From positions 1 to 10,697 of the forward strand of contig JBHLNT010000147.1 in NCBI GenBank assembly GCA_048941265.1: a stretch of DNA of 10,697 nucleotides, in the 5' to 3' direction. Position 1 is the first letter of the stretch; each line of letters starts with the position of its first letter. Source of the DNA: Promethearchaeota archaeon. Lineage in GTDB: Archaea; Asgardarchaeota; Lokiarchaeia; Sigyniarchaeales; SOKP01. The notes under the pieces were generated by a model, which made no database searches, was not told the DNA's origin, and worked only from the letters and a program-made list of their open reading frames with translations. Positions 1 through 10,697 of the stretch are shown here, one piece after another. Position numbers and translations under genes: made by a program.

Positions 1-194
1 TCTATTGCAAGCACCTGAGCTGCCACTTCAGATAATAAAACTGTATTTTTCCCTGTACCGCAACCAATTTCAATTATTTTTTTATTTTTAAACTGTTGAA
101 TGAGTTTTCTTACGATCAAATGATCTAGATCCCTCGTAGGATTATTATCTTGGTCGTAAATATCACTCCATAAATTATAATTTTCTTTTGTCAT
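1..194 (-). CDS. Class I SAM-dependent methyltransferase, N-terminal part (runs off the left edge)
   Basis: Not in the ORF track. Manual translation from ATG at 194 gives MTKENYNLWSDIYDQDNNPTRDLDHLIVRKLIQQFKNKKIIEIGCGTGKNTVLLSEVAAQVLAI(D), open to the edge. It has SAM motif I (IIEIGCGTG) and starts 2 nt after the trpA stop. Confidence 0.88.
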   Translation of the reverse strand, partial: MTKENYNLWSDIYDQDNNPTRDLDHLIVRKLIQQFKNKKIIEIGCGTGKNTVLLSEVAAQVLAI

Positions 195-196
195 AT

Positions 197-1033
197 TCAC
201 TTCAGACTCTTTTTTATACTAGATACAAATTCTACCATTTCTGTTTCCATTTTTGAATAATTATTAAGATTGGCCTTAATAATATTTACAATAGCCGAGC
301 CGATTATAACTCCATCGGCTCCGGCTTCAACAATTGTTTTTGCATGTTCGGGTTGAGAAATTCCAAATCCTACTAATATCTGGAGAATTCCGATTGTTTT
401 TTGTTTTATTCTTTTAATGGTATCTTTTGTTATTTGAGCTACAGTGTCTCTCGCCCCTGTAACGCCCATTAGAGATATCAGATATATAAATCCTTTAGCT
501 TTCTTTAATATCATTCTGAGTCTTTCTTCGGTTGTTGAGGGCGCAATCAGAAAGATCAGAAGAATATTATACTTTTCACATGCTTTTAAAGCTAAATCTG
601 CCTCTTCAATAGGAAGATCTCCGATAACTATACCCTCAACTCCGCTCTCTCTAAGCAATTTAAAAGTTCTGTCTAATGAGGCTTCAATTGTTTCTTCTCC
701 TTGTATAAGAATATTATAGTAGGTCAAAATTACTATGGGTTTTTTTGTTTGTGTTCTTATTTCTTTAATCGCATCCAATGCTAGTTTTGTATTTATTCCG
801 GCATTAAATGCTCTCACATTTGCTTCTTGGATGGTGGGACCATCAGCAATAGGATCAGAGAACGGAATACCAATCTCAAGAATATCTATATAAGGTTCAA
901 TTGCTAACGCCAATTTCTTGAATTGGATAATATCAGGATCTCCGGCTACTAAGAAAGGCATAAAGTATTTGTATTTATTATGCTTATTTTTCTCAAATAA
1001 TTCCAATAATCCGTTCTTTTTCATCTTTTCCAT
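197..1033 (-). CDS. trpA: Tryptophan synthase alpha subunit
   Basis: Motifs AGDP, ILEIGIPFSDPIADGPTIQ (catalytic Glu and Asp), TYYN, GVTGAR, VGFGIS and GADGVIIGSAIV. ATG at 1033 is preferred over GTG at 1036 because the paralogous copy starts MEK at the equivalent ATG. Confidence 0.97.
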   Translation of the reverse strand: MEKMKKNGLLELFEKNKHNKYKYFMPFLVAGDPDIIQFKKLALAIEPYIDILEIGIPFSDPIADGPTIQEANVRAFNAGINTKLALDAIKEIRTQTKKPIVILTYYNILIQGEETIEASLDRTFKLLRESGVEGIVIGDLPIEEADLALKACEKYNILLIFLIAPSTTEERLRMILKKAKGFIYLISLMGVTGARDTVAQITKDTIKRIKQKTIGILQILVGFGISQPEHAKTIVEAGADGVIIGSAIVNIIKANLNNYSKMETEMVEFVSSIKKSLK

Positions 1034-1069: not shown

Positions 1070-1079
1070 AAAAAAAAAA
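1070..1079 (-). terminator. U10 tract in the trpA 5' leader, candidate attenuator or terminator
   Basis: A10 on plus (T10 on minus), about 20 nt downstream of the 1099-1148 hairpin and 36 nt before the trpA ATG. The second copy has A7 at 3726-3732. Oligo-T tracts are established archaeal termination signals. Confidence 0.5.
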
Positions 1080-1098
1080 TAGATAATTATAATTTGAA

Positions 1099-1148
1099 TT
1101 AGAATTCTCTTATTGCAACTCATTTCTTTTAAGAAAGAGAAATTCTAA
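1099..1148 (-). promoter_or_regulatory. AU-rich stem-loop in the trpA leader
   Basis: Arms TTAGAATTCTCTT (1099-1111) and AAGAGA-A-ATTCTAA (1135-1148) form a 13-bp stem with a single bulged base. Confidence 0.5.
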
Positions 1149-1162
1149 ATATAAATAGACGC

Positions 1163-1190
1163 CATTGCGCACGTTCTATGCGTGCCAACG
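1163..1190 (-). promoter_or_regulatory. GC-rich stem-loop overlapping the last codons and stop of the leader ORF
   Basis: Minus strand reads CGTTG-GCACG-CATAGAA-CGTGC-G-CAATG: a GCACG/CGTGC stem extended by CGTTG/CAATG, with the leader stop TAG in the loop. It is a local GC island in a very AT-rich spacer. Confidence 0.55.
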
Positions 1191-1247
1191 CCAAATCCAA
1201 AACCAAGTTATTTTATAAAAATCGCAATTTTTATTCAATTCTGTCAT
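1176..1247 (-). CDS. Putative Trp-rich leader peptide (TrpL-like), 23 aa: MTELNKNCDFYKITWFWIWRWHA
   Basis: ATG ACA GAA TTG AAT AAA AAT TGC GAT TTT TAT AAA ATA ACT TGG TTT TGG ATT TGG CGT TGG CAC GCA TAG. Four TGG codons within 7 codons, on the same strand as trpA and ending 142 nt upstream of it. Confidence 0.8.
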   Translation of the reverse strand: MTELNKNCDFYKITWFWIWRWHA

Positions 1248-2633: not shown

Positions 2634-3392
2634 ATGACATTGAGTTTAAATATTAAGAGAAATTTAAATATGAGACAAATATACGAGATATATAAATTTG
2701 AACTCTTATTACAGAAAAAAAGATATATTATATTCTTAATCCTCTCCCTCCTAATTTATAATTTATTTGCAATTTTTTCAATAGTAGCTCCAAATGCACT
2801 ATCTTTTGTCGTTTCGGCCATAAATCAATTAGGATCATTTCTCATGCTAATATGTATCTTTTTTGTCGGAGGAATTATAGCTGAAGAATTTGATAAACGA
2901 ACAGCTCTAACTAACTTTACTAAAACCGGTAGGGATAACTTCTTTGTAGGAAAATCTTTAGCAGCTTTTACTGTAGTTTTATTTTGGATTGGTCCTGCTT
3001 TTATGGAGACTATAATATTCTGTTTAATTATATATGGCGAAGTACCTTTTCAACTTTTTATTTGGTTCGGTTATTACTGTTTAGTTGGAGGCATGTATAC
3101 CGGGCTCTATCTTTTACATAGTGCAATATTTCGGTCTGGTTCTCAAGCTATGGCAATTAGTTTTTTTACATTTATAACTTTAATAATTGCTTTTGGAATA
3201 TTAGGAGCATTCTTCGGACTCTGGTATTTATTTCCGATATACGCAGAAATAGCTGCATCAGCAATATTTAGTGGACCCATCTACGATGAAGATATCATGA
3301 TTAATGTCTATTTTGGCATAATTTTATCTTTAACTTATATGATTCCATGTATAATCCTCGCATTTATTCAGTTTAAAAGAAGAGATGTTTAA
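2634..3392 (+). CDS. ABC-2-type transporter permease
   Basis: About 6 hydrophobic segments, N-terminal IYKFELL and the IIAEEFDKRT...R...FVGK motif. It follows the ATPase. The start is more likely ATG 2634 or 2670 than the overlapping 2595. Confidence 0.88.
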   Translation: MTLSLNIKRNLNMRQIYEIYKFELLLQKKRYIIFLILSLLIYNLFAIFSIVAPNALSFVVSAINQLGSFLMLICIFFVGGIIAEEFDKRTALTNFTKTGRDNFFVGKSLAAFTVVLFWIGPAFMETIIFCLIIYGEVPFQLFIWFGYYCLVGGMYTGLYLLHSAIFRSGSQAMAISFFTFITLIIAFGILGAFFGLWYLFPIYAEIAASAIFSGPIYDEDIMINVYFGIILSLTYMIPCIILAFIQFKRRDV

Positions 3393-3395
3393 AAT

Positions 3396-3414
3396 TTCTT
3401 TTTTTCTTTTTTTT
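3396..3414 (+). terminator. Oligo-T terminator candidate after the ABC operon
   Basis: Runs of T7 and T8 separated by single C residues immediately after the permease stop. Confidence 0.5.
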
Positions 3415-3438
3415 AATAAAATATCAAAATAAAAATTA

Positions 3439-3686
3439 AATGCTAGTTTTGTATTTATTCCATCATTAAATGCTCTCACATTTACTTCTTGGATGTTGAG
3501 ACCATCAGCAATAGGATCAGAGAACGGAATATCAATCCTAAGAATATCTATATAGGGTTCAATTGCTAACGTAACTTTTTTGAATTGAGAAATATCAGGA
3601 TCTCCAGCTACTATGAAAGGCATAAAATTCTTGTATTTATTATGCTTATTTTTCTTAAATAATGCCAATAATCCGATCTTTTCCAT
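3439..3686 (-). pseudogene. trpA: Truncated trpA paralog (N-terminal ~82 codons)
   Basis: 65/78 aa identical to intact TrpA from GLL to TKLA. Homology ends abruptly at 3439. The catalytic motif has decayed (ILEIGIP to ILRIDIP, GPTIQ to GLNIQ). The ORF tail to 3330 is unrelated run-on sequence. Confidence 0.92.
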
Positions 3687-3828
3687 AAAATTTTCACTTT
3701 ATTTGTAATTTTTAATTATTTTAATAAAAAAATTGATTCTTATAATTTGAATTAGAATATTCTCAATAAAACTCATTTTTTTTAAGAAAGAGAAATTCTA
3801 CGTATAAATAGATGCCATTACGCACGTT

Positions 3829-3900
3829 TTATGCGTGTCAACGCCAATCCTAAAACCAAGTTATTCTTAAAAATCTAGTTTTTTCTACATTTTGAATCAA
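3829..3900 (-). pseudogene. Decayed copy of the Trp-rich leader ORF
   Basis: TTG ATT CAA AAT GTA GAA AAA ACT AGA TTT TTA AGA ATA ACT TGG TTT TAG GAT TGG CGT TGA CAC GCA TAA = LIQNVEKTRFLRITWF*DWR*HA*. Two Trp codons are now stops, there is no in-frame ATG, and the terminal stop is kept (TAG to TAA). Confidence 0.75.
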
Positions 3901-4099
3901 AATTGTTCTTTTACTTGGTTTTGATTATTATTGATATAAAAATTTTGTTGGATATTAGATCGTTAAAATATACTATAATGAGAATCTGAATTTCGTTATA
4001 TTAGTTAATGAGGAATTAAAAAACATTAAAAATTATTTCCTATAGTTAAACTATAACTTTTATTAATATTGATTTTATAGAGACTAGGTAATAAAATTC

Positions 4100-5132: not shown

Positions 5133-7769
5133 ATGAATGAATCTGAAATATTATATAAAGATATATTTAATTCTTCACCTTTTTTGATTGGATTAATTAA
5201 TAAAGAAGGGATTTTAATCAATATTAATGATAAAGTTAAAGATTTCCTTTCTATCCATACGAAACAACAAATAATAGGGAAAAATTATATTGATATTCTA
5301 AGTTTAAATGAAAAAAATAAACCCCTTATTCCAATCTTTAAAGATTATTTTGAGAAAATCTTTAAAGGTGAAAAACAAGATTCTTTCGAATTTAAACTCT
5401 ATAGATCAATAGAAGGATATTTTTGGTGTAGATTTGATTGCTCCTTAGTGAAAATTGAAGAAGTAGAAATCATTCAATTTATGGTTCAAAATATTACAGA
5501 ATATAAAAAAATCGAAAATAATTTAAGAAGATCGGAAGATAGATTTAGAAGTTTGTTTAAAGGAAGTCCATTGTTTACTATAGCTTGGCAAAAAGTTGAC
5601 GATGATTTTATTTTACTTGATTATAATAATACTGCTGTGAATATGTATGGTCAAGTAAAGGATGATTTGGGAATAACTGCTTCTGAAATGTTTTTAAAAC
5701 GACAATCTCGACCAGATCTTTTTGAAGAACTAAATCGATGTTTCGAAGAAAAATCCACTTTTATAAAGGAAAAAAAGATTTACGTTCACTTTTTGAATAG
5801 AGAACGGGATTTTAGAATAATATGGAGTTATGTTCCATCAGACTTAGTATTAACATATCTCGAAGACATTACTGGAGTGAAAAGACAAGAACAAAAGCTA
5901 AAAACCTCTGAAGAGAAATTTAGACGGTTATTTAAAGGAGCACTATATTTCGCAGTTGCATGGCAAAAAGAAAATGATGATTTTATTCTATTTGATTATA
6001 ATGAAGGTGCCGAAAAGATCACTAAGGGGCAGATAAAAGAATATATAGGTAAAAGTGCTTTTGAATTATTTATAAAAGAGCAAAATAGGTCAGATCTCCT
6101 TGAAAATCTAAAAAAATGTTTTCAAGAAAAAACGAATTTCACTGTAGAACAAACTCAATATCTCGACTTTCTAAACAGAGATGTAGATCTTAGAGTAAAA
6201 TATACTTATGTCCCTCCGAATTTAGTCTTAACTCATTCTGAAGATATAACCTCAAGGAAAAAGGCTGAACAACAATTAAAGGCTTCTGAAGAGAAATTTA
6301 GACGGTTATTTAAAGGGAGTCCATACTTCACTGTAGCATGGCAAAAAAAAAAAGATGATTTTATTATAATTGATTTCAATGAGGGTGCCGAAAAGCTCGC
6401 TGTGAGGGAGACTAGGGATTATATGGGTAAAAGTGCTTTTGAACAATTTGTAAAGGAGCTAAATAGACCAGATCTCTTTGAAAATCTAAAAAAATGTTTT
6501 CAAGAAAAAATGAATTTCACTGTGGAACTTACCCAATATATTTACTTTCTAAAAAGAAATGTAGATTTTAGAGTAAAATACACATATATCCCTCCAAATT
6601 TAGTCTTAGCTAATTATGAAGATATAACTGAAAGGAAAAAGGCTGAACAAAAACTAAAAGAATCTGAAGCGAAATTTAGATCTGCATTTAACAATAGTGC
6701 AATAGCAATGACAATCAGCACAATTGAAGAGGGACGGATTATCGAAGTTAATGATGTTTTTTTACATGATCTCGGATATCAAAGAGAAGAGGTTATTGGC
6801 AAGACATCTAAAGAACTGAATTTGTGGGTGGAACGCAGTCAACGAGGATTAATGATGAAAACTATTAAAGAAACGGGAAGCATTATTAATGCACAATCTC
6901 AATATAGAACGAAAACAGGCGAACTAAAATACGGACTTTTTTCCATTAATAAAATTACTATTAATAGAAAACCCTACCTATTATTTATAGTGAATGATAT
7001 AACAGATCGGGTTGCAAACGATATAAAATTAAAAGAATCTGAGAAAAATTTAAGAGAAGCATATAACCGTGCAGAATTTTATAAAGATTTATTTGCCCAT
7101 GATATCAATAACATGTTGCAAAGCATTTTATCATCAAATCAGCTTATATCAATGTTATCTCCCTCTAAGGTAGAAAAAGAAAAATTTGGTGTATTTTTAG
7201 ATATAATTAGTTCTGAGGTCAATCGAGGCAAAAAATTAGTTAATAGCATTAAAAAACTTTCTCTAATTGAAGAAAAAGAAATTCTTCTCGAAAAAGTAGA
7301 AATATTGAGCATTTTAAAGAAATTAATCGACAAGACAAAAGATTCTGTTAATGATAAAAATCTTATAATTCAGATTGATTGCATAAAGGAGCAATGTTAT
7401 CTGCAAGCGAATAAATTAATTAAAGATGTATTTGAGAATATTATAATAAATTCAATAAGACATAATAAGAATGAGAATGTGGAGATTATAATTAGAATAT
7501 CAAGTCTTAAAGAAAATGGCATTAATTATTGCAAGCTGGAATTTATTGATAATGGGATTGGAATAAAAGATATTAGAAAGAGCGAAATATTTTACCGCGC
7601 GTCTCCGGAGAGAAAGAAAATATATGGAATAGGTTTAGGCTTATCGCTTGTAAATAAAATCATCGAAATGTATAAGGGAAAAATCTGGGTTGAAGATAGA
7701 GTAAAAGGAGATTATTCAAAAGGAAGTAATTTTATAATACTAATTCCCGAGGTGCAAATTAATGGTTAA
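5133..7769 (+). CDS. Soluble multi-PAS (5 PAS) sensor histidine kinase
   Basis: Repeated PAS-terminal DIT linkers and SEEKFR starts. H-box FAHDINN, N-box VFENIIINSIRH, G1 FIDNGIGI, G2 GIGLGL. No transmembrane segment. Confidence 0.95.
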   Translation: MNESEILYKDIFNSSPFLIGLINKEGILININDKVKDFLSIHTKQQIIGKNYIDILSLNEKNKPLIPIFKDYFEKIFKGEKQDSFEFKLYRSIEGYFWCRFDCSLVKIEEVEIIQFMVQNITEYKKIENNLRRSEDRFRSLFKGSPLFTIAWQKVDDDFILLDYNNTAVNMYGQVKDDLGITASEMFLKRQSRPDLFEELNRCFEEKSTFIKEKKIYVHFLNRERDFRIIWSYVPSDLVLTYLEDITGVKRQEQKLKTSEEKFRRLFKGALYFAVAWQKENDDFILFDYNEGAEKITKGQIKEYIGKSAFELFIKEQNRSDLLENLKKCFQEKTNFTVEQTQYLDFLNRDVDLRVKYTYVPPNLVLTHSEDITSRKKAEQQLKASEEKFRRLFKGSPYFTVAWQKKKDDFIIIDFNEGAEKLAVRETRDYMGKSAFEQFVKELNRPDLFENLKKCFQEKMNFTVELTQYIYFLKRNVDFRVKYTYIPPNLVLANYEDITERKKAEQKLKESEAKFRSAFNNSAIAMTISTIEEGRIIEVNDVFLHDLGYQREEVIGKTSKELNLWVERSQRGLMMKTIKETGSIINAQSQYRTKTGELKYGLFSINKITINRKPYLLFIVNDITDRVANDIKLKESEKNLREAYNRAEFYKDLFAHDINNMLQSILSSNQLISMLSPSKVEKEKFGVFLDIISSEVNRGKKLVNSIKKLSLIEEKEILLEKVEILSILKKLIDKTKDSVNDKNLIIQIDCIKEQCYLQANKLIKDVFENIIINSIRHNKNENVEIIIRISSLKENGINYCKLEFIDNGIGIKDIRKSEIFYRASPERKKIYGIGLGLSLVNKIIEMYKGKIWVEDRVKGDYSKGSNFIILIPEVQING
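5532..6662 (+). repeat. Three tandem intragenic PAS-encoding repeats (375, 378 and 378 nt)
   Basis: Units 5532-5906, 5907-6284 and 6285-6662. Units 2 and 3 share long identical DNA, for example TCTGAAGAGAAATTTAGACGGTTATTTAAAGG and TTGAAAATCTAAAAAAATGTTTTCAAGAAAAAA. Confidence 0.9.
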
Positions 7770-8124
7770 GGTATTTATAGTAGAAGATGAACCCCATATT
7801 CAATTCTTATATAAACAGATAATATCAATTTTAGGTTTTGAGGTAGTTGGTACAGCAAGTGACGGTGAAGAGGCCATCAACGTGTATAAATCATTTTCTA
7901 CCGAACCAGATCTTATTCTTATGGATCATCGTATGCCAAAAAAAAATGGTATTGAAGCAACAAAAGAGATTTTAAAAATAAGCAATCATACAAAAATTAT
8001 TTTTGTAAGTGCCGATAGTAGTATTATGGAAGAAGTTCTCTCTCTAGGGGTTGTTAGCTTTAAAGAAAAACCATTTACTATTGAAAAACTAAGGAGAAAT
8101 ATTGAAAAATATGTTTCTCAATAG
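7762..8124 (+). CDS. Stand-alone response regulator receiver (CheY-like)
   Basis: VEDE acidic pocket, LMDHRMP phosphoacceptor Asp, VSA and KPF. No output domain. Overlaps the kinase by 8 nt. Confidence 0.95.
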   Translation: MVKVFIVEDEPHIQFLYKQIISILGFEVVGTASDGEEAINVYKSFSTEPDLILMDHRMPKKNGIEATKEILKISNHTKIIFVSADSSIMEEVLSLGVVSFKEKPFTIEKLRRNIEKYVSQ

Positions 8125-8398: not shown

Positions 8399-9031
8399 TT
8401 GTCTGAGGATTTAGTAAGTTTAATAGTAGATTTATATGAGAAAGAAGCGATAGAGCTGGTTCAAAAGCAGGTGGAAACAGGGGAAGATCCTTTGAAAATT
8501 TTAGATAAGGTAAGAGTTGCAATGTCCAAGGTAGGAGAAAAGTTTGAGAACAAGGAGTTCTTCCTACCAGATCTGATCATGTCCGGTGAGATTCTAAGAC
8601 AGATAACCGAAATTTTAGAACCTAAACTTAAGGCTGGACCTAAAGCTGAAAGTTTAGGAAAAATAGTTTTAGGAACGGTTTTCGGTGATTTACATGACAT
8701 AGGTAAGGATATCGTAAAATTTATGTTGGAAACAAATGGATTTGAGGTTTATGATCTTGGCGTAGATGTATCAAAAGAAAAATTTGTGGAAAAAATAAAG
8801 GAAGTCAATCCAGAAATTATCGCTCTGAGTGGATTCTTAACTTTAGCATATGACTCTATGAAGGAAACTATAGAGGAAATCAAAAAAGCGGGTTTAAGAG
8901 AAAAATCGAAGATTATGATTGGAGGAGGTCAAATGGATGAAAGTATTAGGAATTATGTAGGTGCAGATGCTTATGGAAAAGACGCAGTTGAAGCAGTGGT
9001 CCTAGCAAAAAAATGGGTAGGTGCTAGTTAA
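8399..9031 (+). CDS. Corrinoid (B12-binding) methyl-carrier protein, MtbC/MttC/MetH B12-domain family
   Basis: N-terminal cap domain (VGEKFENKEFFLPDLIMSG), DxHxxG motif GDLHDIGK, DLGVDV, ALSGFLT, IMIGGG and GADAYGKDA. Confidence 0.95.
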   Translation: MSEDLVSLIVDLYEKEAIELVQKQVETGEDPLKILDKVRVAMSKVGEKFENKEFFLPDLIMSGEILRQITEILEPKLKAGPKAESLGKIVLGTVFGDLHDIGKDIVKFMLETNGFEVYDLGVDVSKEKFVEKIKEVNPEIIALSGFLTLAYDSMKETIEEIKKAGLREKSKIMIGGGQMDESIRNYVGADAYGKDAVEAVVLAKKWVGAS

Positions 9032-9053
9032 GAATCCTCACGAAAAAATTTAT

Positions 9054-9059
9054 AGGAGG
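9054..9059 (+). promoter_or_regulatory. Shine-Dalgarno RBS
   Basis: AGGAGG 9 nt upstream of ATG 9069. Confidence 0.8.
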
Positions 9060-9068
9060 GAACAAAAA

Positions 9069-10406
9069 ATGGAAGATAAATGGAAAGAGTTATCTACAGA
9101 TGAGAAACAGGAGGAAATGTTTAAAAGGTGGCTTTCGCCCCAAGGCATAGAGTTTACTAATCCTGAAGCCGAGAAGGCATATAAAGAAAGAGTAACGAGG
9201 ATAAAAGATGCGATTCAATTGAAAAAGAACCCTGATAGAGTCCCAGTAATGTTAATGCTTGGTTTTTTCCCTGCCTTTTATAGTGGAATAACCCCCAGAG
9301 AGGCTATGTATGACTATGATAAACTCCTTATGGCATGGAAAAAAATGATTTTAGATTTTAAACCTGATGCACATATTGGGTGTTTCGTACCTGGTCCAGG
9401 AAAACTTTTTGATATTCTTGATTACAAATTATATGCATGGCCTGGCCATGGAGCTTCCCCTAACCATTCATATCAGTGCCTTGAGAGTGATTACATGAAA
9501 GTGGATGAATATGATGCTTTTATTCAAGATCCATCAGGTTACTTCAGAAGCGTATATTTACCACGTGTATTTGGAGCATTAGATCCCCTTAAACAGTTAG
9601 CACCTCTCACTAATATAGTCGAATTACCATTCACCGGTGGCAATATTCTACCATATGGCCTGCCAGACGTTCAAGAAGCCCTTAAGGCCCTTATGGAAGC
9701 AGGAAGTGAAGCACTGAAATGGGCAGGGACACTTGGAGCGTATGATAAGGAGATGGCAGAAGCAGGGTTTCCTAACTTTTTTGGTGGAGCTTCAAAAGCA
9801 CCATATGATACTCTTGGCGATACTCTAAGAGGCACTAGAGGAATAATGCTTGATATATACCGGCAGCCTGATAAGGTACTTGAAGCTCTTAGAGTGATAA
9901 CCCCTTTAATGGTCAATATGGGAGTATCTATGGCGAAGATGAATGGAAATCCAATTGTATTTATACCTTTACATAAAGGTGCTGATGGTTTTCTTTCTGA
10001 TGAACAGTTTAAGACTTTTTACTGGCCTACCTTTAAGAAACTCCTTATGGGGTTAATTGAAGAAGGATGTGTACCATTTTCTTACGTTGAGGGCGGTTTT
10101 AACTCTCGGCTGGATGTCATTAAAGATGTACCTAAAGGTAAGGTTATATGGGCCTTTGATACAACAGATATGACTAGAGCAAAAGAAATATTAGGTTCTT
10201 CTGCCTGCATAGGGGGTAATATGCCCATCGCATTATTAAATATAGGTACACCCCAAGAAGTAAAAGATTATGCAAAGAAATTAATAGATACTGCTGGTAA
10301 AGATGGGGGCTACATAATGATGAACGGGGCTGTAATCGATGAGGCAAAGCCTGAGAATATTAAAGCTATGATTGATTTTACTAAAGAATACGGAGTATAT
10401 AAGTAA
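9069..10406 (+). CDS. UroD/MtaA-CmuA superfamily protein, probable corrinoid-dependent methyltransferase
   Basis: Motifs PDRVPV, LRGTRGIMLDIYRQPD, FLSDEQFKTFYWP, CIGGNMP, GTPQEVK, GGYIM and AKPENIKAM. Adjacent to the corrinoid protein. Start moved from 9021 to 9069 on the basis of the RBS. Confidence 0.88.
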   Translation: MEDKWKELSTDEKQEEMFKRWLSPQGIEFTNPEAEKAYKERVTRIKDAIQLKKNPDRVPVMLMLGFFPAFYSGITPREAMYDYDKLLMAWKKMILDFKPDAHIGCFVPGPGKLFDILDYKLYAWPGHGASPNHSYQCLESDYMKVDEYDAFIQDPSGYFRSVYLPRVFGALDPLKQLAPLTNIVELPFTGGNILPYGLPDVQEALKALMEAGSEALKWAGTLGAYDKEMAEAGFPNFFGGASKAPYDTLGDTLRGTRGIMLDIYRQPDKVLEALRVITPLMVNMGVSMAKMNGNPIVFIPLHKGADGFLSDEQFKTFYWPTFKKLLMGLIEEGCVPFSYVEGGFNSRLDVIKDVPKGKVIWAFDTTDMTRAKEILGSSACIGGNMPIALLNIGTPQEVKDYAKKLIDTAGKDGGYIMMNGAVIDEAKPENIKAMIDFTKEYGVYK

Positions 10407-10436: not shown

Positions 10437-10697
10437 TCACTTTACTTTAAACTCCACATATTTTTTTATTATATCTAAATCTTTAGAGCCTGAACCAGAT
10501 AAATTTACAACAACAATATCTTTTTTATTAAAATCACTTTTGATTTTTTCTAAATATGCTAATGCGTGTGAGCTTTCAAGGGCAGGAATAATTCCTTCTA
10601 AAAGCGATAGTTTCTTAAATGCCTCAAGCGTTTCATTATCTGTTGCTTCTCCAACTCTTAATCGATCCATTTCTTTTAAAAAACAGTGTTCTGGTCC
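10437..10697 (-). CDS. trpB: Tryptophan synthase beta subunit (TrpB1-like), C-terminal part (enters from the right edge)
   Basis: The frame is open to the edge: GPEHCFLKEMDRL...EGIIPALESSHALA...VVNLSGSGSKD. GPEH and EGIIPALESSHA are TrpB1 hallmarks. Confidence 0.9.
   Translation of the reverse strand, partial: GPEHCFLKEMDRLRVGEATDNETLEAFKKLSLLEGIIPALESSHALAYLEKIKSDFNKKDIVVVNLSGSGSKDLDIIKKYVEFKVK

Follow-up and report, generated by a model that had tools for sequence, protein, structure and literature searches.

The stretch of DNA analyzed here, a 10,697-nucleotide (nt) contig from a Promethearchaeota archaeon that we refer to as the window, raises the question of how the gene for the alpha subunit of tryptophan synthase (trpA; minus strand, 197–1036) is controlled in this organism. 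Upstream of trpA on the same strand lies an open reading frame (ORF) of 23 codons plus stop (1247–1176; ATG 1247–1245, TAG 1178–1176) that encodes the peptide MTELNKNCDFYKITWFWIWRWHA and contains UGG codons at positions 15, 17, 19, and 21 (1205–1203, 1199–1197, 1193–1191, and 1187–1185, respectively). The initial annotation of the window proposed that this ORF, a GC-rich hairpin with the stop codon in its loop, a 13-base pair (bp) AU stem, and a U10 tract form a ribosome-mediated attenuator of trpA. Each of these parts, as well as trpA itself, was found where it had been placed; a TATA box at 1304–1297, a helix that involves the 5' untranslated region (5'-UTR), and a decayed second copy had been overlooked. 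Our analysis argues, with moderate confidence, that the ORF is a tryptophan (Trp)-sensing leader peptide gene within a regulatory cassette of ~235 nt that drives trpA. The means by which the putative sensor would act on trpA is considerably more tentative.

The ORF is unusually rich in Trp. UGG accounts for 1.09% of codons in the long ORFs of this genome, and the occurrence of four or more Trp residues in a given 7-codon window has a probability of ~5e-7; the G+C content of the region is 22%. A hairpin-motif search of the 154 genomes of the order, in which up to two mismatches were allowed, matched in 21 genomes, compared with five matches for the reversed control pattern. Five of the 28 places (L032–L035 and L040) were discarded as spurious on the grounds that they had two mismatches, lacked TAG, or fell within long frames. 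There remained 22 intact cassettes and one decayed cassette, distributed over 18 of the 154 genomes and all belonging to one family. The Trp frame is open from its ATG in all 22 intact copies, as opposed to 2 and 0 copies for the other two frames, counts that overstate independence in that the copies are related (four subtypes) and do not represent independent trials. The leader ATG sits 8–17 codons before the Trp block. The segment that precedes TWFW differs among copies in sequence and length, and the C-terminal TWFWxWxWHA is kept. The codons that separate the UGGs are variable in each of their three positions (I/V/D/A/F/K and R/S/P/H/C), and, Trp apart, the conserved residues (T, F, H, and A) are those with codons inside two RNA helices, P0 and P1, that are described below. 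The freedom of the spacer codons, together with the conservation of codons that lie within helices, gives the ORF the look of a regulatory leader rather than of a functional peptide. The ORF is probably a translated Trp sensor that acts in cis.

The gene downstream of the intact cassette is co-oriented in every one of the 22 copies and lies 139–214 nt away. It is trpA in five copies, trpE (Chorismate_bind and Anth_synt_I_N domains) in six, trpD (Glycos_transf_3) in four, and a fusion of GNAT and S-adenosylmethionine (SAM)-methyltransferase domains in five; a 99-amino acid ORF without family follows one copy, and the last precedes a locus in which a trpE-like start is visible and no long ORF was called (probable trpE). 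The closest relatives of the window’s trpA in the species collection are seven loci with 72–84% identity, five from Promethearchaeia or Promethearchaeota and two from entries named ‘uncultured archaeon’. Promethearchaeia is a class in the phylum Promethearchaeota, kingdom Promethearchaeati (Asgard archaea), and the archaeal origin of the contig suspected in the initial annotation is borne out by these neighbors. At two of the seven loci, a stand-alone trpA lies behind the same mini-gene (MTKKIISGLNKLTWFWVWSWHA and MNNKKEHHCFYKITWFWDWPWHA); at the other five, trpA follows trpB directly with no leader between them.

Metagenome contigs were also scanned with a pattern for the Trp block, and the best 80 of 112 stretches were considered. 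Among the matches listed, at least 16 full leaders occur in 15 loci, followed by trpA (2), trpE (2), trpD (4), a class-I glutamine amidotransferase of the TrpG type (1; Pfam 5e-48), small ORFs without family (4), or the end of the contig (3). The comparison that the initial annotation had put forward thus came out positive: in relatives, orthologous trp genes are preceded by conserved, Trp-rich short ORFs that are accompanied by the same hairpins. Two less specific searches were set aside. The bare pattern TGGTTTTGGNNNTGGNNNTGG matched in 24 of the 161 genomes of the class against 26 hits for its reversed control, and only one of its 11 new places (L053) is a leader. A genome-wide list of short frames dense in Trp held 283 entries, mostly within genes, and was too noisy to use.

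The promoter and the RNA helices are the remaining parts of the cassette. The TATA box TATAAATA (1304–1297, minus strand) stands ~50 nt upstream of the leader ATG, and this octamer or a one-base variant of it is found at equal distance in the related copies whose sequences were printed. Archaeal transcription generally starts ~25 nt downstream of the TATA box. A consensus fold of nine trpA- and trpE-type copies by RNAalifold contains three helices. In P0, AAAUCAAGUU of the 5'-UTR (1266–1257) pairs with AACUUGGUUU (1209–1200), which comprises codons Thr14-Trp15-Phe16. P1 is a hairpin of 11 pairs (1192–1161) with a 5' strand that extends from Trp19 to Ala23 and a 3' strand that reads CGUGCGCAAUGGC; its inner stem, GCACG (1185–1181) with CGUGC (1173–1169), closes a 7-nt loop (CAUAGAA) that contains the stop codon. 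P2 (1148–1099) is the 13-bp AU-rich stem, in which 1148–1135 (UUAGAAUU-U-CUCUU, with one bulged U) pairs with 1111–1099 (AAGAGAAUUCUAA) across a 23-nt loop. The U10 tract (1079–1070), a candidate archaeal oligo-U termination site, follows 19 nt past P2.

These helices are conserved beyond the copies used for folding. Across 21 copies that represent the four subtypes, 91.6% of helix cells are paired, compared with 29–45% when the partners are slid; the figures for 30 copies of the window’s own leader type are 94.9% and 28–48%. For P1, 95–99% of cells are paired (slid controls, 28–48%). Changes on both sides were observed at four pairs in the 21 copies, all of them in P0, and the covariation score was matched by no shuffle. 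In 19 of 21 copies, the P0 duplex between the 5'-UTR and the Trp block scores z ≤ −2 relative to shuffled UTRs. One two-sided change in P0 is found in L017, and the GNAT subtype builds P0 from other letters (CAAAACC/GGUUUUG plus AAUGAAA/UUCAUU). In the GNAT and trpD subtypes, P0 covers the region just upstream of the leader ATG. Both arms of P2 are recognizable in 27 of 35 copies, with loops of about 24–78 nt; L206 has a different, longer stem in the place of P2, and in L150 both center bases are changed without the pair being kept. Changes in P2 are mostly compatible with G-U pairing on the sense strand (11 G-U vs. 3 A-C cells in nine sequences). Moreover, the arms are complementary to each other and not individually symmetric, with TT only to the left of the 5' arm and AA only to the right of the 3' arm, which favors a hairpin over two operators. 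The duplex energies of P2 relative to shuffled arms are modest (z from +0.9 to −2.6 in 20 copies), and AU-rich shuffles pair almost equally well. No Rfam family, T-box included, matched the window at its gathering score; at E ≤ 10, the only matches were leu-phe_leader (16 bits against a cut-off of 70) and one small RNA model.

The same genome holds three further Trp leaders of other sequence types, on contigs C293, C189, and C307. The leader at the end of C293 terminates in SWFWVLHWHA and precedes the GNAT-methyltransferase; that of C189, MVPVNNLAWRWQWTWRWR, precedes trpB2, which encodes a TrpB-like enzyme (NF009057, 640 bits); and that at the end of C307 reads MSTVKLFYFRWQWPWRA. Relatives of the C307 type stand at the head of the trpD operon in four genomes and before trpB2 elsewhere, so that the C307 copy probably heads an unassembled trpD-C-F-B stretch. 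Since both C293 and C307 end in a cassette, repeated leader cassettes seem to break the assembly. The gene trpB2 is present in 132 of the 154 genomes of the order, and 22 of the best 30 trpB2 loci have a short ORF with at least three Trp codons 197–235 nt upstream (8 do not). Most genomes of the order seem to retain only this last-step or salvage enzyme, often behind a Trp leader.

All leader types share a GC hairpin that carries the stop codon at its tip and has the Trp block as its 5' strand. Between types, the stems around the stop codon are compensatory (GGCGUUG/UAACGCC, GGUCUUG/UAAGACC, GUUGGC/GCCAAC, AUUGGC/GCCAAU, GGCGCG/CGCGCU, and GCGCC/GGCGC). In several of the other types, the 5'-UTR pairs by eye with the segment right after the hairpin. 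Common to the copy in the window, C189, C307, C293, and their relatives are a promoter of their own, a short ORF with at least three alternating UGG codons, the stop-codon hairpin just described, and a co-oriented downstream gene related to Trp. The recurrence of this design is the strongest argument that the position of a ribosome on the Trp codons would control the folding of the RNA. As a separate observation, the types that head trpB2 or trpD (L130–L148; C189, ~14700) share conserved motifs near the gene, ATGTGCGTTATTA and, after it, the near-palindrome ATTGAATTCCAAT; these motifs may be a promoter, an operator, or a further RNA element.

Why should such a leader stand before trpA rather than trpE, a position that the initial annotation considered unusual? 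In a genome of the same genus, one leader heads the order trpD-trpC-trpF-trpB-trpA and a second precedes trpE 12 kb away. In the window, trpA and the 3' end of trpB (10437–10697, minus strand; 80% identical to residues 315–400 of the same-genus TrpB), which runs off the contig, are on the same strand and 9.4 kb apart. This separation indicates that the operon was split and that the new first gene, trpA, carries its own cassette. The position is explained by a cassette that, in relatives, heads the first trp gene after an operon break. We found trpE in 36 of the 154 genomes. Of the 27 trpE loci whose 5' end is intact, 6 lie immediately behind a leader, 18 come right after the C-terminus of a TrpA-like protein (as seen by eye in comparison with the TrpA of the window), and 3 have other arrangements; a leader-trpA-trpE unit is present in three genomes. 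When same-genus proteins were used as queries, none of trpD, trpC, trpF, and trpE was found in the 91%-complete genome of the window. Judged from these gene orders, the cassette is modular in behavior, with a copy placed at the front of every operon fragment.

The window also contains a decayed duplicate (3330–3944, minus strand) that consists of the cassette and the first ~90 codons of trpA, its N-terminal third, and is 81% identical over 244 nt. This duplicate lies within the 9.4-kb stretch between trpB and trpA, and it matches Trp_syntA over profile positions 1–82 only. Its leader has no in-frame ATG, Trp17 and Trp21 are replaced by TAG and TGA, respectively, and the hairpin has one pair fewer. 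It is the apparent trace of the duplication that gave trpA its leader. The decay of a leader beside a broken trpA, combined with the association of intact leaders with four trp genes, points to a role in cis.

These features suggest a model in which the transcript would start ~25 nt past the TATA box at 1304–1297 and run through the leader toward trpA, with a ribosome translating the leader as it is transcribed. When charged tRNA-Trp is scarce, the ribosome would stall on UGG codons 15, 17, 19, and 21. Because these codons form the 3' arm of P0 and the 5' strand of P1, a stalled ribosome is expected to keep both helices open. When Trp is plentiful, the ribosome would reach the UAG in the loop of P1 and be released, whereupon P0 and P1 would close. 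On the folded, ribosome-free leader, RNA polymerase would then end at 1079–1070, with or without FttA; a stalled ribosome would instead let transcription, or the mRNA, continue into trpA. Oligo(dT) tracts, and FttA with Spt5, are described as the two known routes of archaeal termination in PMC13681488, and it is on account of the former that we take U10 as the likely attenuation site. A run of at least five T residues occurs within 25 nt past P2 in 21 of the 27 copies with a recognizable P2, and the spacing between P2 and the T run is 19–21 nt in the trpA and trpE types. When cassettes before different genes are compared, similarity stops shortly after the T run. That the output is premature termination at the U tract is a possibility to which we give somewhat less than even weight.

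Several observations weigh against this model, in addition to the relatedness of the copies noted above. Translation, stalling, the direction of the response, and termination at U10 are steps that we infer from sequence; the conservation of the parts as one cassette, its association with trp genes, the preserved frame, and the helices are what the compared copies display. Covariation within the window’s leader type is weak (two pairs, with three cells changed on both sides, among 30 sequences), and support for the helices within the type rests mainly on conservation plus the comparison between types. Some trpD-type copies retain just two UGG codons (STWFCICCWHA), which indicates that the Trp sensor can erode. 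Past P2, a run of just T4 is present in six of the 27 copies (four of the GNAT type and two of the trpD type). P2 ends 19 nt (19–21 nt in the copies) before the T run rather than adjoining it, and a scan of 950–1400 for terminators of the bacterial type returned no site. In the consensus fold, masks that represent the ribosome footprint at each Trp codon or at the stop alter only P0 and P1; P2 is unchanged and no antiterminator appears. The freed 3' strand of P1 pairs with downstream sequence no better than shuffled controls (z −1.4 to +1.9 in 21 copies); the 5'-UTR reaches z < −2 against downstream sequence in only 1 of 21 copies (L031), and the N-terminal coding part reaches z ≤ −2 in none of 18. 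Base pairing of the freed strands therefore does not account for the way in which a stalled ribosome would spare a polymerase 125 nt further on. An AT-rich promoter of trpA itself, located after the leader, may also exist.

Two further features of the region between P1 and trpA may be mentioned. P1 is followed by interrupted U3 runs only. By eye, six of nine copies of the trpA and trpE types carry in the P2 loop a GCAUG-like mimic of the 5' strand of P1; since neither the window nor the trpD and GNAT types have this motif, it was rejected. The view in the initial annotation that the order of parts matches bacterial TrpL attenuators is not supported, as no antiterminator pairing was found and no hairpin abuts the U tract. 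The link between a stalled ribosome and termination may be an effect, kinetic or tertiary, of P0, P1, and P2 folded as an array, it may depend on the access of FttA, or it may involve P2 acting ~20 nt upstream of the U run. A role for a hairpin upstream of a U run has been proposed for RNA polymerase III.

Four other explanations were weighed. The serious rival, unlikely as we judge it to be, keeps the sensor that stalls on UGG and makes the output post-transcriptional: the stalled ribosome would protect the leader-trpA mRNA from 5'-to-3' decay, or folding would alter the translation of trpA, and the T run would not be a regulated terminator. The evidence for a translated sensor applies equally to this scheme, which is also favored by the failure to find an antiterminator or a switch that acts on P2 and the T run, by the location of P0 at the extreme 5' end of the predicted transcript (and near the leader ATG in the GNAT and trpD subtypes), and by the 6 of 27 copies that lack a run of at least five T residues. 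Ribosome stalling protects the ermC leader mRNA of Bacillus, and archaea have 5'-to-3' exonucleases. The scheme does not account for the conserved P2 and the T run at 19–21 nt in the trpA and trpE types. Rather more doubtful is the idea that trpA has its own promoter in the AT-rich stretch past P2 (the T run plus AAAATAAT). The cassette would then give rise to a short transcript of its own, ended by the T run, that acts in trans as an RNA or peptide or influences the promoter, and the P2 repeat would perhaps be a protein-binding site. The arms of P2 do share the palindromic core AGAA(A/T)TTCT, and the unpaired center bases of L150, the fixed spacing between 3' arm and T run (which also suits an operator beside a TATA box), and the palindrome-like ATTGAATTCCAAT near the gene in leaders that head trpB2 or trpD agree with such a site. 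TATA-like words are spread from −90 to −20 of start codons in this genome, and a promoter here would not be unusual; profiles of promoter motifs at 2119 putative gene starts showed no sharp TATA peak and are too flat to speak for or against one. Against this stand the mutual complementarity of the P2 arms without individual symmetry, a spacer that varies from about 24 to 78 nt, and the predominance of changes compatible with G-U pairing. With 5 occurrences against ~3 expected, the palindrome TTAGAANTTCTAA shows no enrichment in the genome, and no further copies of a P2-like inverted repeat were found in it beyond the known cassettes. Nor is there a conserved box resembling TATAAATA past P2; TTTATA at 1155–1150, which the initial annotation had raised as a possible promoter of trpA, is not conserved in relatives. 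Finally, the cassette is always co-oriented with, and near, a gene of one pathway.

The remaining two explanations dispense with a sensor read by the ribosome. The UGG repeats might bind a Trp-responsive RNA-binding protein, as in TRAP, or tRNA-Trp, as in a T-box, with the ORF being incidental. The fixed 6-nt period of UGG with free spacers would suit a reader of triplet repeats, but an ATG followed by an open frame in 22 of 22 copies, set against the other two frames, and a stop codon found at the same place of the hairpin in every leader type make this very unlikely. In addition, the 91%-complete genome yielded no match to PF02081 (TRAP) in a search in which the Bacillus subtilis control was positive, and no T-box or other Rfam match was obtained. 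It is more improbable still that the ORF encodes a functional Trp-rich micropeptide whose adjacency to trpA has no regulatory meaning. Conservation of the C-terminal TWFWxWxWHA is what such a peptide would predict; yet the conserved T, F, H, and A residues are exactly those with codons in P0 and P1, the remainder of the peptide varies freely, and both the association with four trp genes and the decayed copy beside the broken trpA indicate a role in cis.

How does a putative Trp-sensing leader cassette of this kind compare with known systems? It resembles the enterobacterial trpL leader (RF00513) in that a short ORF rich in Trp codons lies directly upstream of genes for Trp biosynthesis, the regulatory codons are within a helix that a stalled ribosome would open, and a U tract precedes the structural gene. 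The expected logic, in which low charged tRNA-Trp would lead to expression, is also the same. In E. coli, too, the start region of the leader is hidden by pairing once a first round of translation is over. The cassette differs from trpL in its archaeal host, in the alternating WxWxWxW instead of an adjacent Trp pair, in the pairing of the Trp codons with the 5'-UTR rather than with a downstream segment, in the stop codon that lies in a hairpin loop, and in the presence of several cassettes before different genes in one genome. Moreover, no terminator/antiterminator alternative, no hairpin abutting the U tract, and no Rfam match were found. As neither alternative hairpins nor an intrinsic terminator composed of a hairpin plus U residues nor an Rfam match was found, the cassette should not be classed with the bacterial trpL family. 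It is a probable form of leader-peptide control in another domain of life, trpL-like in its predicted sensor.

A different set of parallels is provided by mgtL/mgtA of Salmonella and by tnaC of E. coli, in which a translated leader decides whether Rho can end transcription within a long spacer that is not translated. Through a specific arrest peptide, tnaC responds to free Trp and switches on catabolism. The cassette of the window, unlike tnaC, precedes biosynthetic genes, and the residues between its Trp codons vary. PMC13681488 describes FttA with Spt5 as the functional analogue of Rho with NusG. According to PMC3064811 and PMC3913778, TRAP attenuation of trpEDCFBA in Bacillus subtilis operates through triplet repeats in the trp leader and premature termination. 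The cassette likewise has triplet repeats with short spacers in a trp leader; the TRAP system, however, uses 11 (G/U)AG repeats and the MtrB protein, as opposed to four UGG codons in a conserved ORF and no PF02081 match here. A characterized trp control in archaea is that of TrpY, a DNA-binding repressor of the trp genes of Methanothermobacter. TrpY likewise mediates control of trp genes by Trp in an archaeon, but as a protein at promoter DNA rather than through a translated leader with RNA helices. Mycobacterial short ORFs that respond to Cys, as reported in bioRxiv 10.1101/834739, are leaderless attenuators that control downstream genes of their operons. They too are packed with codons for a single amino acid and occur in a lineage outside the classical models, but they are bacterial, leaderless, and specific for Cys.

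A search of the full-text literature (subscription journals and supplements excluded) turned up no published example, Asgard or other archaeal, of attenuation that is mediated by ribosomes or by a leader peptide. New here are the TWFWxWxWHA type of leader, its modular spread to trpA, trpE, trpD, trpG-type, and non-trp genes, the helix between 5'-UTR and Trp codons, the decayed copy as a natural control, and the negative outcome of the antiterminator search. It is tempting to speculate that Promethearchaeia use modular leader-peptide cassettes as Trp gauges that are read by ribosomes without the terminator/antiterminator switch of bacteria; by holding open P0 and the stop-codon hairpin, the stalled ribosome would decide whether the eukaryote-like RNA polymerase halts at an oligo-U tract, and the cassettes would be copied to operon fragments and recruit non-trp genes (the GNAT-methyltransferase and small proteins) into a Trp-starvation regulon. 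We regard the case for and against this broader proposal as evenly balanced. In bacteria, the textbook demonstration of coupled transcription and translation is leader-peptide attenuation. If the proposal is true, the sensing of amino acids by translating ribosomes would extend to a Pol II-like polymerase, in the prokaryotes most closely related to eukaryotes. The cassette would offer a defined sequence on which coupling, termination at oligo-U, and the action of FttA could be tested in archaea, and a marker for Trp-regulated genes in uncultured Asgard genomes, including the functionally obscure GNAT-methyltransferase. It would also be an example of a regulatory cassette that spreads by duplication when an operon splits.

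The non-trp genes behind full Trp leaders are of two kinds. The GNAT-methyltransferase fusion, 385 amino acids in length, lies behind leaders of the SWFWVLHWHA type in five genomes (C293, 5565–5652 on the minus strand, and L026–L029); no specific NCBIfam family scored above its cut-off for this protein. The others are small ORFs with no Pfam family, of ~100 amino acids (L015, L215, and L217) and 82–93 amino acids (L200 and L206). These small ORFs are candidate new members of a Trp-starvation regulon.

The window itself, which contains no tRNA gene, is contig C147; the genome to which it belongs totals 5.0 Mb and is divided among 361 contigs. Its trpA is assigned by Pfam Trp_syntA (4.5e-76) and TIGR00262 (266 bits against a cut-off of 102) and is the presumed regulated gene; its actual start may be an ATG near 1024. 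A SAM-methyltransferase gene (3–200, minus strand; motif EIGCGTGKNT) has a GTG start overlapping the end of trpA and continues beyond the edge of the contig; in relatives, the site is taken by trpE. On the plus strand, 5133–7769 encodes a PAS histidine kinase of 878 amino acids with three tandem repeats of ~125 amino acids (SE(D/E)(R/K)FR(S/R)LFKG...YVP..LVL...EDIT..K), which is followed by a stand-alone receiver gene (7762–8124). Also on the plus strand, 8399–10406 encodes a corrinoid-binding protein (B12-binding_2 and B12-binding domains) and then a URO-D family protein, a gene pair typical of corrinoid-dependent methyltransferase systems.

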